Part shown: one piece after another, positions 2,131-9,397 of the stretch
Position numbering within the stretch: position 1 is the stretch's first letter
Layout of the letters: every line of letters begins with the position of its first letter
Virus genome (UHGV): UHGV-0188446
Strand: one strand, 5' to 3'
DNA length: 10,714 nt
Source of the DNA: a virus
The notes under the pieces: model-generated
The model's input: only the letters and a program-made list of their open reading frames with translations
Databases searched by the model: none
What the model was told of the DNA's origin: nothing
Made by a program: the position numbers and the translations under genes

Positions 2131-2610
2131 ATGGATAAAATTAATTACCCACCCCTGTTTGAGCCAGGGTTCCATGACATGGATGAAGCTGGATTAAAAT
2201 CGTATTGTGTCGATTGCTTTCCTTCATCATCCAGGCGAGGCATGCTATACTGTAATTTTATACAGCTACTCGAATCTATTCGAGAATTATCTGCTCAATA
2301 TGGCTGTTTTACAGAAATATGGGTTGATGGTTCATACACCACGTCTAAACCAGAGCCTGATGATATTGATATTTTGTTGGTATGTGACTATAGCAATATA
2401 AACTCAATACCTGTCATGCTTCGGGGCCGCGTCGATAATTTGCTTGACCGAAACTACATCAAACAAAACTACAAAATTGATGTCCTACTACTCATGAAGA
2501 ATTTAGATGACCCTAACTATGATTATGAGTACTGGCGTAGCTACTGGCGCGGTTGGTTTGGTTTTGATCGCAGTGAAAACCCGAAAGGGTTAGTGAGGAT
2601 TTTTTTATGA
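2131..2610 (+). CDS. Hypothetical protein with minimal nucleotidyltransferase (pol-beta superfamily) signature; first gene of a two-gene cassette in the rexA/rexB position
   Basis: ORF track 2131..2610, 159 aa. Motif IWVDGSYTTSKPEPDDIDILLVCD fits the hG[GS]-x(9-13)-DhD pattern of minimal nucleotidyltransferases. AAGG about 9 nt upstream of the ATG. Stop overlaps the next gene's start (ATGA at 2607-2610). No resemblance to lambda RexA. Confidence 0.7.
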   Translation: MDKINYPPLFEPGFHDMDEAGLKSYCVDCFPSSSRRGMLYCNFIQLLESIRELSAQYGCFTEIWVDGSYTTSKPEPDDIDILLVCDYSNINSIPVMLRGRVDNLLDRNYIKQNYKIDVLLLMKNLDDPNYDYEYWRSYWRGWFGFDRSENPKGLVRIFL

Positions 2611-3539
2611 ATGATAAATCAATGTTTAAAAATTGCGATAAACGCATTGATTTCATTCAAAAAGAAGTCGATGCAATGAAGCAAAACAAAACCAGGTCCT
2701 TTGCTGACATGCTTCTTTATCGCTCCATGGATTCTCATCTGAGCGATTTGAAGGCCGAAAAATTAAAGCAAGATAGTCGGCACCCACTTATCGATTTTTT
2801 TGAGCTGCGGCTGAAAGGCTCTGAGGTTGACTTTGGCTCTATTCCTTTAGAGCTGCTTGGGGCTATTTCAACAAATCTTGCAGCGCTAATACAAAGAGCA
2901 ACACACAAAATTGCCTCAGGCAAGGACTCAAAAAAAGTTCCCTACGACGTGAAAAGCTCCTTAAACCTCAGGCTGGCTGATTTATCCCCTGGGTCTACAA
3001 AATTGGGCGTCACCTTCTCTACAGGAATAGCAGAATTAGTAGAAACAGTACCCAGCAAGGCTGTAAAAGGCATATTCGATTTGTTGTTAAGCGATGACGA
3101 CAACAACTTCATGAATCACGTCGCTGAAATTGGATACAATTCCACTGTAAGCCTTAAGAGAATCGTAGAGGAATGCGATAAACACAACTTAACATTTGAT
3201 GCAAGTTGGACCGGTCCATTTAGTAATGGCACCAAGGTGGCAACTATTGACTCCAATAAAATTAAGTACTTGGTGAGTAGACTTACATCAACCATTTCAT
3301 CCCCTCCCATTACTGAAACGGTTACAGGCGAACTGGTCGTTCTATCCAAATATGGGAAGCTGGAGCTTGATGTTGGTGGTGAACATTTAAAGGCTTCCTA
3401 TCCGATTGAAATGCTAGATTTAATACAAAAAAAACACAAGGTCGGACAGATTGTTTCTCTTTTAGTGGAGACTACTGAGATTCACAATGATCGCATAGGT
3501 CTGTACCGTAAAAACCATCTTGTTAAATCGGTTCTTTAA
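2607..3539 (+). CDS. Hypothetical 310-aa soluble protein of unknown function; second gene of the cassette, translationally coupled to the nucleotidyltransferase gene
   Basis: ORF track 2607..3539. ATG overlaps the upstream stop. No long hydrophobic segments, no Walker motifs, no resemblance to RexB seen by eye. An Rx4H string (RSMDSH, aa 39-44) is noted but is weak evidence. Followed by an intrinsic terminator. Confidence 0.7.
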   Translation: MNDKSMFKNCDKRIDFIQKEVDAMKQNKTRSFADMLLYRSMDSHLSDLKAEKLKQDSRHPLIDFFELRLKGSEVDFGSIPLELLGAISTNLAALIQRATHKIASGKDSKKVPYDVKSSLNLRLADLSPGSTKLGVTFSTGIAELVETVPSKAVKGIFDLLLSDDDNNFMNHVAEIGYNSTVSLKRIVEECDKHNLTFDASWTGPFSNGTKVATIDSNKIKYLVSRLTSTISSPPITETVTGELVVLSKYGKLELDVGGEHLKASYPIEMLDLIQKKHKVGQIVSLLVETTEIHNDRIGLYRKNHLVKSVL

Positions 3540-4941: not shown

Positions 4942-4966
4942 GTTATGTATAAATAAGGAGCACACC

Positions 4967-5107
4967 ATGCAATATGCCATTGCAGGGTGGCCTGTTGCTG
5001 GCTGCCCTTCCGAATCTTTACTTGAACGAATCACACGTAAATTACGTGATGGATGGAAACGCCTTATCGACATACTTAATCAGCCAGGAGTTCCCAAAAA
5101 TGGATAA
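4967..5107 (+). CDS. cIII: CIII, protector of CII (FtsH/HflB inhibitor)
   Basis: ATG at 4967 with AAGGAG 6 nt upstream. 46-aa product MQYAIAGWPVAGCPSESLLERITRKLRDGWKRLIDILNQPGVPKNG matches lambda CIII over its length except for a shorter C-terminus, as recalled. The ORF track shows a longer in-frame form from 4865, which I reject. Confidence 0.8.
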   Translation: MQYAIAGWPVAGCPSESLLERITRKLRDGWKRLIDILNQPGVPKNG

Positions 5108-5406: not shown

Positions 5407-6087
5407 ATGGGAACTGCGACATTAATACTCGGTGAATCTGGCACCGGAAAATCAACCAGCATGAGAAATATCAACCCAGAGGAAGCAATACTTATAAAAC
5501 CAATAGGCAAGCCGCTACCATTTAAATCAAAAGACTGGCTTGCATGGGATGCCAGAGCAAAAAAAGGAACCGTAGTTACCACTGACAAATGGGACGTAAT
5601 AGTTGCTGTAATTAAGCGTGCTCACGAATACGGAAAAAGAATCGTTATTGTTGATGACTTCCAGTATGTGATGAGCAATGAGTTTATGCGCCGCTCAGAA
5701 GAAAAATCGTTTGATAAATTTACTGAGATAGGCCGCCACGCATGGGAGGTGATTAAGGCTGCACAGGATGCACCTGATGACCTGAGAGTCTATTTTCTTG
5801 CACACACCGAAGAAACCCCTATGGGGCGTGTGAAAATGAAGACTATCGGCAAAATGCTGGACGAGAAAATCACTGTCGAAGGCATGTTTACTATAGTTCT
5901 TCGCACCCTTACCCGCGATGACCAGTTCTTTTTCACCACGAAAAACAACGGTGCAGACACTGTAAAATCCCCAATGGGAATGTTTGATTCTAATGAGATT
6001 GATAACGATCTCTCTTTCGTCGATGCCACTGTTTGTGATTACTACGGCATCAATAATGTTCATCAAATTAAGGAAAACGCCGCATGA
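5407..6087 (+). CDS. Sak4-like phage recombination ATPase (RecA-fold P-loop NTPase)
   Basis: 226-aa ORF with Walker A GESGTGKST near the N-terminus and Walker B-like hhhhDD (RIVIVDD). Size and position in the recombination slot are typical of Sak4-type single-strand annealing ATPases. GAGG Shine-Dalgarno upstream. Confidence 0.65.
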   Translation: MGTATLILGESGTGKSTSMRNINPEEAILIKPIGKPLPFKSKDWLAWDARAKKGTVVTTDKWDVIVAVIKRAHEYGKRIVIVDDFQYVMSNEFMRRSEEKSFDKFTEIGRHAWEVIKAAQDAPDDLRVYFLAHTEETPMGRVKMKTIGKMLDEKITVEGMFTIVLRTLTRDDQFFFTTKNNGADTVKSPMGMFDSNEIDNDLSFVDATVCDYYGINNVHQIKENAA

Positions 6088-6671
6088 GCAACGTGATTTT
6101 TACTTATAACGAAGAAGCAGCACTGACCGCAGGGCAAGGTGGTTTTATTAACGAAACTGGTGCTCATATCATTACCATTACTGAAGCAGAACTAAAGCAA
6201 TCAGAAAAAGGAGCCAAATTTATTGAGTTTTCTGGCGAATCTGACGACGGACGTAAAATCCAATATCTTAGCGTCTGTGTTCAGAAAAATGACGGAACGG
6301 AAAACAAATTTGGCGCAAATGTCGTTCACGCCATGATGGGGTGTGCCGGGATTGGACAATTAACGCAACATATGGTTTCCGCCAGTAAATTTGTTGCTCC
6401 TGAGTTTCATGGAAAGAAAATCGGGTTAGTGCTCCAGAAAGTATTAACCACAAACAAAAAGACTGGCGCAGACAACTACCAGATGGAAATACGCATCCCG
6501 TTTATTGCACAAACAGGTCAAACCCTTAAAGAAAAGGCAGAAGGCAAGCAACCAGAAACTATCGCCAACATGGTTGCCAATCTCAAAGATAAAGACAATC
6601 GCTCTAAAAACGTAAGCCAGAATCATGCAGATGATTATGGTTACAGCCAGAACGATTACCCTGCTTTCTGA
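6084..6671 (+). CDS. Putative ssDNA-binding protein partner of Sak4 (function inferred mainly from context)
   Basis: 195-aa ORF whose ATG overlaps the Sak4 stop (ATGA at 6084-6087). C-terminal tail ..DDYGYSQNDYPAF resembles the acidic/aromatic tails of SSB proteins. Sak4 genes are commonly followed by an SSB. Confidence 0.45.
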   Translation: MSNVIFTYNEEAALTAGQGGFINETGAHIITITEAELKQSEKGAKFIEFSGESDDGRKIQYLSVCVQKNDGTENKFGANVVHAMMGCAGIGQLTQHMVSASKFVAPEFHGKKIGLVLQKVLTTNKKTGADNYQMEIRIPFIAQTGQTLKEKAEGKQPETIANMVANLKDKDNRSKNVSQNHADDYGYSQNDYPAF

Positions 6672-6694: not shown

Positions 6695-6991
6695 ATGCCA
6701 GCGCCTCTGTATGGTGCGGATGACCCGCGCAATTGCTCCGGTAGCTCCAAGGCGGAGGTGCTGGAAAATATCAAAAACATTTTCGACACGTTTATCGATC
6801 TGCCACCAGAAACAAAAGCAGAACGGATGTACCGACGCGATATACAACTCGCGTTAAAAAATGAGAAGGACCGAACAAACGAAACATCAATCCGACCATT
6901 CCGCAAAGCCACATATACCCACTTCCCTGAATATATCGACCCGCGCCTGCGTAATTACCGCTCACGCTATGGCGCTATCAGTAATGACTGA
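6695..6991 (+). CDS. Hypothetical protein (98 aa)
   Basis: ORF track 6695..6991. AAGG upstream. Same strand and operon context. Confidence 0.5.
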
Positions 6992-7001
6992 GGAATTTAC
7001 C

Positions 7002-7169
7002 ATGAGAGGACTTGCATACAATCCCGGCATTCTTCCGGCAGAAATGATTATTCGCCAACGCGTAAAGCCAATGCCATCGAGAGAGGAATTGCTTAAGAGA
7101 AATTCTTTTCCATCAGTGAATCAAAACAAATATCTGAATGCGATGTGGCGCAAAGGAGGCAACCAGTGA
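7002..7169 (+). CDS. Hypothetical protein (55 aa)
   Basis: ATG at 7002 preceded by GAGGA. In frame with track ORF 6861..7169, whose upstream extension overlaps the previous gene and is rejected. Stop overlaps the GTG start of the next gene. Confidence 0.45.
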
Positions 7170-8032
7170 GCAAGATTGACTATCAGGTACTGCGTGCCAA
7201 GGCAGAAAAAGCAACGTGTGGTGTATGGTCGCTCGAATATGGAGAGAGCCGATTTGATGGTGATGATGCTCTAATTTATCGCGAGGCTGCTGGATATATT
7301 CCCATTTGCAGAATTGAAGGAGCGCATCCAGAAAGCGGTTTCGATGAAGATTTCCAAATGGAACAGCAGGCCAATGCTGAATTCATCGCCGCAGCCAATC
7401 CCGCTACCGTCTTGGCCCTGCTGGATGAACTGGAAAGAAACCAGCAATACATAAAACGCCGCGATCAGGAGAACGAGGATATTGCGCTAACGGTAGGGAA
7501 ACTGCGTGTTGAGCTTGAGGAGACAAAATCAAAACTCAACGAGCAGCGCGAGTATTACGAAGGTGTCATCTCGGATGGAAGTAAGCGCATAGCAGAGTTG
7601 CAGACAAAATCTGCACCAGATTCGTTTGGCATCATCGGTGAAAATATTCGAACACAGGATAATCGAATAACGTCAGACCCTATGTTTTGTGTGTATCAAA
7701 AGTGCGAAATTGTTGTTGATGCTGATTATGACTATGACCGGATTGTCTGGGTTGATGAAGATGGCAATGAAGCCAATAAACGCCAAAGTCGTCGTCTCGA
7801 ACTACTTCACGAAAACTTTCGAGAGCCACCAGAAAAATGGCGGCGCGTTGCTGTGAAAGATATTGATGAATTCGTTACCTGCTGTTTCACCGAACAGGGT
7901 TGTAAAGACTACCTGGCAGCCAATGGTCACAATCTTCGCTTGCCATTTATATATGTAAAAAGCGGTTTCAGGAACGCTGAATATATCGGCATAAGAAACT
8001 GGCTTGCTGGCATTCGCATCAAAGGAGAGTGA
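7166..8032 (+). CDS. Ea22-like protein (coiled-coil-containing phage early protein of unknown function)
   Basis: ORF track 7145..8032. Preferred start is GTG at 7166 (AGGAGG 8 nt upstream, GTGA overlap with the upstream stop), giving [15 protein letters not shown].... Assignment rests on position upstream of ea8.5 and general resemblance to Ea22-family proteins; not verified. Confidence 0.5.
8007..8032 (+). repeat. 26-bp direct repeat, copy 1 (ctggcattcgcatcaaaggagagtga)
   Basis: Identical to 8501-8526. Encodes the C-terminal GIRIKGE plus stop of the Ea22-like gene and carries the AAGGAG Shine-Dalgarno for the next gene. Confidence 0.9.
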
Positions 8033-8034
8033 GA

Positions 8035-8526
8035 ATGCAAATTTCACCGGTTACTCTTCGTGTTGCGAAGGCGTTTATATCCAGACATCACCGACACAAT
8101 AAACCCCCGGTGGGGCATAAATTCAGCATTGGTCTGAGAAATGATGCCGGAGAATTGATAGGTGTGGCGACAGCCGGTAGACCTGTTGCACGACATTTGG
8201 ACGATGGATTAACGCTTGAAGTAAATCGCACATGTACCACAGGAGAACGCAACGCTAACAGCGCGCTTTATGGTGCTGTCTGGCGGGCAGCAAAGGCTAT
8301 GGGTTATCAACGTTGTATTACGTACACCCAGGCAGATGAATCAGGAGCATCTCTCCGCGCAGCTGGTTTTGTTCGTGTGAAAGAGCTTCCTCCAAGAAAA
8401 AGCTGGGCGGAATCAAGCGTCGCCCTGCGGAGTAAACGCGATCCGGTCGGAAACGGTGGTGTTCCTCGTGTGCTCTGGGAAATCAGGAGAATGAGTACCA
8501 CTGGCATTCGCATCAAAGGAGAGTGA
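8035..8526 (+). CDS. Hypothetical protein (163 aa), possibly GNAT-like fold; inserted gene bounded by 26-bp direct repeats
   Basis: ATG at 8035 with AAAGGAGAG upstream (the track starts at GTG 8029). Product MQISPVTLRVAKAFISRHHRHNKPPVGHKFSIGL.... The C-terminal GIRIKGE plus stop is encoded by the second repeat copy. Fold assignment is a weak impression only. Confidence 0.5.
   Translation: MQISPVTLRVAKAFISRHHRHNKPPVGHKFSIGLRNDAGELIGVATAGRPVARHLDDGLTLEVNRTCTTGERNANSALYGAVWRAAKAMGYQRCITYTQADESGASLRAAGFVRVKELPPRKSWAESSVALRSKRDPVGNGGVPRVLWEIRRMSTTGIRIKGE
8501..8526 (+). repeat. 26-bp direct repeat, copy 2
   Basis: Perfect copy of 8007-8032. Confidence 0.9.
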
Positions 8527-8728
8527 TATGAGCAGGAATACGGGTTTGTAAAAGATAACGCTTGTGAAAATGCTGAATTTCGCGTCGTCTTCACAACGAT
8601 GCCAGAGTCTGTAGTGTCAGATGATGACCGTACTCAAACATCGGGTTGGGTATTATCTTACTGTTTCTTTACATAAACATTGCTGATACCGTTTAGCTGA
8701 AACGACATACATTGCAAGGAGTTTATAA

Positions 8729-9010
8729 ATGAGTATCAATGAGTTAGAGTCTGAGCAAAAAGATTGGGTGTTATCAATGTTGTGCAGATCCGGTGTCTTG
8801 TCTCCATGCAGACATCACGAAGGTGTTTATGTAGATGAAGGTATAGATATAGAATCGGCATACAAATATTCCATGAAGGTTTATAAGTCTAATGAAGACA
8901 AATCCCCATTCTGCAATGTGCGAGAAATGACTGATACCGTGCAAAATTATTATCACGAGTACGGTGGAAACGATACTTGCCCTCTCTGTACAAAACATAT
9001 AGATGATTAA
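8729..9010 (+). CDS. ea8.5: Ea8.5-like protein (Cys/His-rich, probable zinc-binding)
   Basis: 93-aa ORF, the same length as lambda ea8.5 (282 nt) and in the same relative position between ea22 and xis. Contains C..C..HH...C...CPLC ligand candidates. Sequence matches lambda Ea8.5 as far as I can recall. Confidence 0.6.
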   Translation: MSINELESEQKDWVLSMLCRSGVLSPCRHHEGVYVDEGIDIESAYKYSMKVYKSNEDKSPFCNVREMTDTVQNYYHEYGGNDTCPLCTKHIDD

Positions 9011-9028
9011 ACCAAATATTACATAACA

Positions 9029-9057
9029 ATCCTCGCACTCGCGGGGATTTCTTTTAT
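9029..9057 (+). terminator. Rho-independent terminator after ea8.5
   Basis: 8-bp stem atcctcgc/gcggggat with loop actc, followed by ttcttttat. Confidence 0.6.
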
Positions 9058-9060
9058 CTG

Positions 9061-9085
9061 AACTCGCTACGGCGAGTTTTGTTTT
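9061..9085 (+). terminator. Second tandem hairpin plus T-run
   Basis: aactcgc-tacg-gcgagtt perfect 7-bp stem followed by ttgtttt. Confidence 0.55.
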
Positions 9086-9097
9086 ATGGAGATGATT

Positions 9098-9397
9098 ATG
9101 GGCTGTTCAACATTCAACCCTCTAACTTTACAGAAATACCAGCCAGACCCTGAAGATTTATGCTCACTGTGTGGCGGAAATCATGGTAAAGCCGCCATGA
9201 TCGAATGTAAGGACAAAATCCACATATGCCTTAATTGCGTTGATGTCCTCGTTGATATCAAAAATGAAAGAGAAGATAAAAAGCGTAGCGAGGCTATTCG
9301 CGCCTTAGATTCATGGATGCGAGATGGGTATAGTGCTGCGCAAATTTATGACTTAGCCATTTCAAAAGGCGAAATACCAGGTGTGCGCATCGAATAA
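9098..9397 (+). CDS. Hypothetical zinc-ribbon-like protein (two CxxC pairs)
   Basis: Track ORF 9086..9397. Preferred start is ATG 9098 with GGAG 6 nt upstream. Motifs CSLCGG and HICLNC. Confidence 0.5.
   Translation: MGCSTFNPLTLQKYQPDPEDLCSLCGGNHGKAAMIECKDKIHICLNCVDVLVDIKNEREDKKRSEAIRALDSWMRDGYSAAQIYDLAISKGEIPGVRIE

Follow-up and report, generated by a model that had tools for sequence, protein, structure and literature searches.

A 26-nt in-frame gene-boundary linker on both sides of an XF1762-family gene in a lambdoid prophage

Introduction

The DNA analyzed here is a 10,714-nt stretch of the virus genome UHGV-0188446 (hereafter the window, meaning the whole stretch). It spans the immunity region and the early-left region of a lambdoid prophage, whose pL operon is on the + strand. 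In the early-left part of the window an ea22-like gene is followed by the gene for a 163-aa protein of the XF1762 family, and the two unrelated proteins end in the same seven residues, GIRIKGE, encoded in both cases by the same 26-nt sequence. The locus therefore raises the question of how the two genes came to share this end, and of what kind of event placed the XF1762 gene between two copies of one sequence.

The mosaic structure of phage genomes has been the subject of a long debate, in which homologous recombination at short boundary sequences is set against random illegitimate recombination with subsequent selection. The annealases of lambdoid phages are of the Red, Erf, Rad52-like or Sak4 kinds. 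The comparisons reported below describe the 26-mer as a gene-boundary linker shared by many unrelated modules, and the recombination that is likely to have used it is considered together with the alternatives in the Discussion.

Results

Two exact copies of a 26-nt sequence

The sequence CTGGCATTCGCATCAAAGGAGAGTGA is present on the + strand of the window in two exact copies (Table 1). A separate repeat search returned the same pair, 26 nt long, 100% identical, spaced by 494 nt and not extendable, so the perfect direct repeats from which the initial annotation started were recovered exactly. There is no third copy in the whole window when up to three mismatches are allowed, and in a control of 200 dinucleotide shuffles the 26-mer was matched in 0 of 200. 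The AGGAG of the left copy (8023-8027) lies 7 nt ahead of the ATG at 8035 and that of the right copy (8517-8521) lies 6 nt ahead of the ATG at 8528. As had been proposed from the sequence, the first copy both ends the Ea22-like gene and provides the Shine-Dalgarno (SD) sequence for the gene that starts at 8035, and both proteins end in GIRIKGE-stop, the 163-aa one as ...MSTTGIRIKGE-stop. The second copy was assigned the corresponding roles; it does end its gene with GIRIKGE, but no real gene follows to use its SD, only a seven-codon remnant open reading frame (ORF) with the sequence MSRNTGL. This remnant is also found behind other ea22 variants (L006, L057, L067, L075, L077, L081 and L149), and the version in phage lambda is shorter.

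The two-copy arrangement recurs in CP054662, an independent complete Escherichia coli chromosome, and in IMG/VR contigs, five of them exact and two with one mismatch. Because independent genomes have the same arrangement, the repeat is not an assembly artefact, a concern that the initial annotation had itself raised. Two further origins can be set aside. Tandem duplication of an ancestral segment is ruled out since the interior DNA is unrelated to either flank, and a transposon target-site duplication is ruled out by the 26-bp length, by a variable left junction and by a right copy that diverges together with its gene.

Modules joined at the 26-mer

Phage lambda's own ea22 has the 26-mer as its 3' end, as lambda prophages of K-12 lysogens show, and the spacer behind it there matches window positions 8527-8720. 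Gene 37 of phage HK022 has the identical end. An exact-match scan of IMG/VR for the 26-mer returned at least 120 contigs, and the counts that follow are those among the matches listed. At 131 occurrences, at least eight unrelated protein C-terminal domains lie ahead of the 26-mer; the Ea22 N-terminal region is present in 87 of the upstream proteins, and the rest include XF1762 and an AP2/HNH-like protein. Behind the 26-mer are at least 16 unrelated protein families and the lambda spacer, with the start codon 1 nt after the TGA in all 16 families and 2 nt after it for XF1762. When the 121 usable occurrences are sorted by flanking nucleotide sequence, at least 14 upstream and at least 20 downstream classes are joined in at least 56 combinations, and at least 22 pairs of upstream classes have two or more downstream classes in common. 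Across 80 distinct contexts, the consensus frequency has fallen to background by position -8 on the upstream side and directly after N-ATG on the downstream side. As far as sequence comparison can tell, reassorting flanks together with sharp edges are the mark left by crossovers that recurred inside a short boundary sequence.

Three features expected of a boundary linker are found at this site: a short sequence conserved between flanks that are unrelated on both sides, a position at a gene boundary where recombinants are left with intact genes, and flanking modules that occur in multiple combinations. The initial annotation had suggested looking for the 26-mer at gene boundaries of other lambdoid genomes, and many such cases were found, with the genes on either side reassorting freely. 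Among the upstream proteins on the minus strand of contig L070 is a 169-aa AP2/HNH-like protein (...GVTWNPSHKRWIAYIRENGKHKHIGSF...) that ends in AGIRIKGE-stop, possibly a homing-endonuclease-type gene on the same linker.

A second linker-bounded module is an 843-bp unit of two genes, present at positions 6259-7125 of L076 and 9-875 of L043 (minus strand). It consists of a ClpX-zinc-finger-like gene and a gene that ends in ...SIATGIRIKGE-stop, and it lies between an ea22 ending in ...AAGIRIKGE-stop and the next gene. The same linkers on both sides of this unit show that XF1762 is not the only module with a two-copy arrangement. Variants of the linker are also related to one another. The P2-type left linker (L002, 2500-2522), GGCATCAAAGGAGAGTGA, equals the lambda-type GGCATTCGCATCAAAGGAGAGTGA less 6 nt (TCGCAT, located between CAT repeats), and the tails AGIKEESE, AGIKVEVK and AGIKWEAE, each followed by a stop codon, also begin with GCTGGCATCAAG. 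From this common start and the 6-nt difference between the P2 and lambda types, it follows that the linkers are a family related by descent.

A scan of GTDB species-representative assemblies for the linker gave 38 matches (L138-L175), mostly on short contigs or on low-coverage contigs of about 48.5 kb. Genuine-looking matches came only from Escherichia spp., Shimwellia and Phytobacter, and the scan says little about the distribution of the linker. The linker contigs assigned to Streptomyces, Streptococcus, Shewanella, Pseudomonas, Prevotella and other genera look like contamination with phage lambda control DNA.

The empty site

Contig L075 aligns to the window in two blocks, 7642-8034 at 98.98% identity (393 nt) and 8501-9096 at 98.5% (596 nt), which overlap on a single 26-mer. 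Its ea22 variant, lambda-type spacer and ea8.5 are those of the window, XF1762 and the whole 8033-8526 segment are absent, and L075 is thus an exact empty site. The XF1762 gene of the window lies between two sequences that are adjacent in this related phage, which is one of the features of a moron. HK022 and about 100 records of Shiga toxin (Stx) phages also have this ea22 variant with a single copy of the 26-mer, followed by other genes. The expectation that related prophages without 8033-8526 would carry one repeat was therefore borne out by L075, HK022 and the Stx phages.

Junctions of the cassette and the XF1762 tail

Of 5426 complete E. coli genomes, 154 have the XF1762 cassette, at 169 places in total of which 20 are on plasmids, and its contexts include lambdoid and P2-like prophages, a plasmid and a genomic island. 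The right-hand 26-mer, with at most one mismatch, ends XF1762 in about 60 of 80 IMG/VR loci and is followed there by at least nine different downstream genes. In L127, which has an 88%-identical copy of the cassette, the right linker differs at 4 of 26 positions (VIHIKGE-stop) and has diverged in step with the gene. The left junction is of several types. The full 26-mer is found behind ea22 variants (five exact cases and two with one mismatch), a 17-21-nt type (...NIGIKGE-stop or ...NIRIKGE-stop) is found in P2-like prophages (such as that of UTI89 and phage PhiR44_2), a 57-kb plasmid and the island, and further types are a 12-nt version and a related but different linker, ...AAGIKEESE-stop. 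Since the right linker is constant in all E. coli contexts examined, the repeat was not created by this insertion. The event neither generated nor donated it: the left copy is the normal lambda-type end of ea22, and the right copy travels with XF1762.

The conserved core of the XF1762 protein comprises residues 1-152 and ends in ...RVLWEIR(R), and the linker encodes a tail of about 11 residues (153-163). Homologues from other genera reach their stop codon within one to three residues after the core (...EIRRMK-stop, ...EIRA-stop) or have other tails according to lineage. Because the core ends near residue 152 in other genera and the confidence of the structural model falls beyond residue 151, the tail is, judged by homologues and model, an appendage acquired in the E. 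coli lineage that lies outside the fold. Among variants of the tail, non-synonymous changes (I to T, E to D, G to V, R to H) occur as frequently as synonymous ones, and this speaks against selection on the peptide. In Klebsiella and Salmonella the homologues lack the E. coli linker and lie elsewhere, in nin-like or replication-proximal regions; these contexts indicate that the tail depends on context and are informative for that only.

At the junction of core and tail (8482-8500) the window reads ...ATCAGGAGA ATG AGT ACC ACT GGC..., where the AGGAGA-ATG and a start of the MST/MTT type recall the genes that follow linkers elsewhere. From this sequence, the XF1762 tail may be what an internal deletion left of a downstream gene when it fused that gene in frame. 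A separate observation concerns the neighbors of the homologues in other genera. In Klebsiella prophages (L131-L133) the XF1762 homologue adjoins KwaA/KwaB (Kiwa defence), and in Salmonella prophages (L134-L137) it lies two genes upstream of a 664-aa C5 DNA methylase, so that both neighborhoods concern defence or DNA modification.

The XF1762-family protein

The 163-aa protein matches the NCBIfam model XF1762_fam (NF045478) with 204.7 bits against a cutoff of 50 (E 5e-61, profile positions 2-130 of 143), and the RefSeq name of the identical gene is 'XF1762 family protein'. It also falls in PHROG 1384, 'Mom-like DNA modification protein' (4e-42). The Pfam Mom model (PF25680) scores 22.4 bits over profile positions 3-124 of 202, which is below its gathering threshold of 27.1. 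An AlphaFold (AF2) model built from 54 homologues has a mean predicted local distance difference test (pLDDT) score of 84.7 and a GNAT-type fold with its last strand at residues 145-151. A sequence search of the PDB with the protein gave no match, and Mom was reached through a Foldseek search with the fold, in which the crystal structure of Mu Mom (8bv8, S124A; E 9e-8 to 2.5e-7, template modeling (TM) score 0.70-0.73) takes PDB ranks 1 and 2, followed by generic GNAT acetyltransferases.

Mom of phage Mu is a GNAT-fold enzyme that modifies DNA adenine using Gly-tRNA (PDB 8bv8; PMC13219725); its residues R111 and S124 and a helix-turn-helix (HTH)-like insertion at residues ~175-209 are essential for activity (PMC13219725). 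The likeness of the XF1762 protein to it consists of the best structural match, the PHROG label 'Mom-like' and four Mom residues, H58, R111, S124 and D149, that by inspection appear to correspond to H19, R65, S76 and D101. A weak hidden Markov model (HMM) alignment also puts H58 on H19 and R111 on R65, and the remaining two pairs are by inspection only, with RNSES against RNANS placing S124 on S76. In the XF1762 alignment H19 and R65 never vary, S76 reaches at least 90% conservation, and D101 is absent from the listed conserved columns. The differences are that the protein has 163 aa against 241 in Mom, that Mom R151 is replaced by serine, that the gene has no com-like regulator, and that, where Mom has its ~35-residue HTH-like insertion, there is a poorly modeled but conserved loop of ~26 residues between the last two strands (residues 119-144, pLDDT 51-61), in which the model contains no helix-turn-helix. 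The protein is therefore treated here as working in the manner of a Mom-type transferase, and not as a member of the Mom family. Its predicted function, from fold and motifs only, is most likely acyl or aminoacyl transfer onto nucleic acid, with an anti-restriction role like that of Mom.

Gene order and other features of the window

The window contains, in order, O and cII (minus strand), cI, a DUF6932 gene and a 310-aa gene, N, Ral and the cIII thermoregulator RNA, and continues with Kil, a Sak4-like annealase, SSB, Abc2, Ea22, XF1762, ea8.5, a ClpX-zinc-finger-like protein, Xis and the start of int. The largest share of it found in one place of any complete E. coli genome is 57%, and the window is therefore itself a mosaic. 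Coordinates are collected in Table 1. The Ea22-like gene matches Pfam PF13935 (Ead_Ea22) over residues 9-153 (1.2e-37, 130 bits against a threshold of 27) and has 98.9% nucleotide identity to the HK022 gene described as 'similar to lambda Ea22'; its RefSeq homologue begins at a GTG equivalent to position 7166. The spacer behind the second linker has 93.6-98.6% identity to lambda prophages in K-12 lysogens and in E. coli E26, with no gene annotated there.

Table 1. Positions of the linker copies, flanking genes and recombination genes in the 10,714-nt window
Feature	Coordinates	Strand	Basis or remark
Sak4-like single-strand annealing protein	5407-6087	+	PHROG 2872 3.9e-108 / PHROG 743 1e-66 for the Sak4-SSB pair; Pfam AAA_24
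SSB of the Sak4-like annealase	6084-6671	+	PHROG 2872 3.9e-108 / PHROG 743 1e-66 for the Sak4-SSB pair
Abc2-type anti-RecBCD protein	6695-6991	+	Pfam Anti-RecBCD_p2 2.7e-37
Ead/Ea22-family gene, HK022 gp37-type C-terminal domain, end ...AGIRIKGE-stop	7145-8032	+	Pfam Ead_Ea22, ORF listing
Left linker copy	8007-8032	+	Last seven codons of ea22, TGA stop (8030-8032) and AGGAG ribosome-binding site for the next gene; exact match
XF1762-family gene, 163 aa	8035-8526	+	NCBIfam XF1762_fam, PHROG 1384, AF2 model, Foldseek
Right linker copy	8501-8526	+	Constant piece of the XF1762 module in E. coli elements; exact match
Lambda-type non-coding spacer, ea22 to ea8.5	8527-8728	+	Identity to lambda prophages
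Seven-codon remnant ORF, MSRNTGL-stop	8528-8551	+	Read from the sequence, directly after the second linker
ea8.5 homologue, right flank of the empty site	8729-9010	+	Pfam Lambda_ea8_5 5.4e-48; collinear with L075

A search of the whole window against Rfam found nothing at the repeats; the sole match is the cIII thermoregulator Lambda_thermo at 4954-5012 (88.5 bits), ahead of the kil/cIII region. Between cI and N, positions 2131-3539 hold the DUF6932 gene (159 aa) and the overlapping 310-aa gene (no Pfam family, PHROG 6603). The pair occupies the position of lambda's rexAB and is a candidate defence or exclusion pair of the prophage. Small ClpX-C4-zinc-finger-like proteins stand beside linker-bounded modules at 9086-9397 of the window, at 1879-2211 of L129 and in the L076 module, and their recurrence in lambdoid and P2-like elements suggests that an accessory block of the exo-xis type moved into the accessory region of P2. 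A 20-nt inverted repeat with 90% complementarity has its arms 730 nt apart, in the coiled-coil region of ea22 (7367-7386) and in XF1762 (8117-8136), and is probably due to chance.

Discussion

The XF1762 gene was probably placed between the HK022-type ea22 and the lambda-type spacer and ea8.5 by linker-mediated recombination, which left the two perfect copies of the 26-mer. The 26-mer is a conserved boundary linker of the early-left (exo-xis) accessory region in lambdoid phages of E. coli. As many unrelated modules share this end, phage genomes that are otherwise non-homologous could cross over within it, and every product of such a crossover would have intact reading frames to its left and right, together with the stop codon and an SD for the downstream gene. 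XF1762 circulates among E. coli mobile elements with the linker already fused at its 3' end, and in the window it would have been joined behind the HK022-type ea22 through the left linker and ahead of the lambda-type spacer and ea8.5 through the right linker. One crossover at the right-hand linker would suffice, between a phage like that in CP054662 (the same ea22 variant, linker, XF1762, linker and then another gene) and a phage like lambda or L075 (linker, remnant ORF, spacer, ea8.5). The initial annotation described a cassette inserted by recombination at a gene-boundary sequence; recombination at the boundary is supported by L075 and the reassorting flanks, and a true insertion is not needed where a single crossover suffices.

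The joints are presumed to be made by homologous or single-strand-annealing recombination (Red-beta, Erf, Sak4 or RecA) on 17-26 bp of identity, and XF1762 would be transcribed by read-through from pL and translated from the SD of the linker. Red-beta's minimal efficient pairing segment (MEPS) is 23-27 bp and RecA's 31-34 bp (PMC3945230), and the 26 bp of the linker are within the Red-beta range. The window itself has genes for a Sak4-type annealase, for the SSB that goes with it and for an anti-RecBCD protein.

Several points weigh against this account. The recombination step is deduced, and lengths of 17-26 bp are at or below the efficient threshold of known recombinases, so that individual events are expected to be rare. 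Collinearity with lambdoid phages is lacking in the P2-like and plasmid contexts, and transfer between them would need two crossovers or another route. Part of the linker's conservation, that of AGGAG, TGA and ATG, is owed to translation signals and not to recombination. XF1762 would first have had to gain its tail, presumably by an in-frame fusion or deletion, and insertion and deletion between repeats are not strictly separable from two states alone.

This last point bears on the direction of the event. If the two-copy state were the older one, genomes like L075 would be products of a precise deletion between the 26-bp repeats, by slippage or single-strand annealing. Direct repeats of this length are good substrates for deletion, the product would have exactly the L075 structure, and the diverged two-copy arrangement in L127 indicates that the arrangement as such is old. 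Such a reversal is nevertheless unlikely, because the HK022-type ea22 class (21 occurrences among the matches listed) precedes XF1762 in only two cases and has seven other downstream classes behind it elsewhere, the ea22/XF1762 junction of the window occurs in 1 of 5426 complete E. coli genomes, and the XF1762 module is found mainly in other contexts. Gain of XF1762 in this lineage thus appears more parsimonious than its loss in L075. A reversal would involve the same repeat and the same recombination chemistry, and would alter the direction of the event and not its nature.

Two other explanations would change the nature of the linker itself. It is very improbable that the sequence is conserved for a function of its own, either as a C-terminal GIRIKGE tag for degradation, localization or partner binding or as an RNA element for translational coupling, with the sharing due to selection. 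AGGAG, TGA and the start codon do serve as translation signals and are optimally spaced, and related tails recur (AGIKGE, AGIKEESE, AGIKVEVK), but these signals account for only about 12 of the 26 nt, identity across unrelated genes is at the nucleotide level and includes synonymous positions, the balance of non-synonymous and synonymous tail variants is that noted above, XF1762 homologues of other genera do without the tail, and the tail is modeled at lower confidence than the fold. A still smaller chance, close to negligible, is given to the 26-mer being the attachment or recognition site of a dedicated enzyme, through integron-like site-specific recombination or gene conversion driven by a homing endonuclease. 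The way in which one sequence joins many cassettes has a superficial resemblance to attC/attI arrays, and one upstream gene with the tail is the AP2/HNH-like gene of L070. Against this, neither strand has an inverted repeat or hairpin at the site or in its surroundings (folding z-scores -0.48, -0.06 and 0.02), no recombinase or endonuclease gene travels with the cassette, the shared length at the left junction varies (12, 17, 21 or 26 nt) as it would in homology-based and not in site-specific joining, and the site is inside a coding sequence and in frame. An attC-like or hairpin site was ruled out, the DNA folding of both junctions on both strands being no better than that of shuffles. Of the features of an integron-type cassette, the locus has neither an attC-like structure nor an inverted repeat at its junctions, and the only nearby integrase is the prophage's int at the far end.

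Recombination at the linker, as preferred here, resembles processes already described. Boundary 'linker' sequences belong to the modular theory of lambdoid phages (Susskind and Botstein, 1978) and were described for HK620 by Clark et al. (2001) (as cited in PMC3233612). The present linker is like them in being a short conserved gene-boundary sequence with interchangeable, unrelated flanks whose reassortment fits homologous recombination inside the linker. It differs in that it lies inside coding sequence, so that unrelated proteins share a heptapeptide end, in that it combines the stop codon with the SD of the next gene, and in that its sharing extends past lambdoid phages to P2-like prophages, a plasmid and an island. 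Relaxed homologous recombination by Rad52-like or single-strand-annealing recombinases of phages has been proposed as a source of mosaicism (De Paepe et al., 2014, PMC3945230), and a Sak4 is known from HK620 (PMC5928155). Common to both cases is exchange between largely diverged phage genomes through short identity, with 26 bp fitting the Red-beta MEPS and a Sak4 and SSB present in the prophage; in the published cases, however, homology extends over hundreds of base pairs at 67-98% identity, whereas here it is a single island of 26-33 bp in DNA that is unrelated elsewhere, known from sequence comparison.

The cassette also invites comparison with morons, which are reportedly extra genes of the kind discussed by Juhala et al. 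in 2000 and by Hendrix and colleagues. It is similar to them as an extra gene between sequences that are adjacent in related phages and in having a probable accessory benefit (Mom-like, possibly anti-restriction). It differs in being embedded in the pL operon and in taking its SD from the linker of the upstream gene. A promoter scan of 7900-9100 found 0 promoter-like sites, and the + strand terminator-like matches in the same interval are a weak one inside the start of the gene (8055-8071) and two after ea8.5, none of them specific to the cassette. The GC content is about 0.50 in the cassette, 0.44-0.48 upstream and 0.39-0.44 downstream. This GC shift is small. With no promoter or terminator of its own within or beside it, the cassette is not a classical moron, and the likeness to morons drawn in the initial annotation is partial.

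A literature search with the terms GIRIKGE and XF1762 found no description of this linker, Clark et al. (2001) and Juhala et al. (2000) lying outside that search. A 2024 paper on the structure of Ea22 states that the C-termini of Ea22 variants 'bear no similarity', save that two variants share a segment of 16 residues. Elements of this kind are already known, and the literature searched seems to hold no account of this particular linker.

The case is a clean example of the known shuffling of phage genomes and not a new kind of element. For the debate on mosaicism, the junction is an unusually clean natural case for the boundary-homology mechanism, with one exact 26-mer, at least 14 by at least 20 modules and a precise empty site, and the linker offers a defined natural substrate for direct tests of linker-mediated mosaicism. 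More speculatively, and with the odds against it, the linker (26-33 nt at the end of ea22) could be a maintained in-frame 'universal joint' that makes the exo-xis region and the equivalent accessory regions of P2-like prophages and some plasmids into arrays of exchangeable single-gene cassettes. It would then be a homologous-recombination counterpart of the integron attachment site, tuned to the pairing length of annealases and kept by second-order selection for evolvability, with the heptapeptide as a neutral by-product. The linker accounts for the identical seven-residue ends of unrelated accessory proteins in E. coli prophages, and it would provide a route by which a Mom-like GNAT gene, present in about 3% of complete E. 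coli genomes, passes among lambdoid phages, P2-like phages, plasmids and islands.

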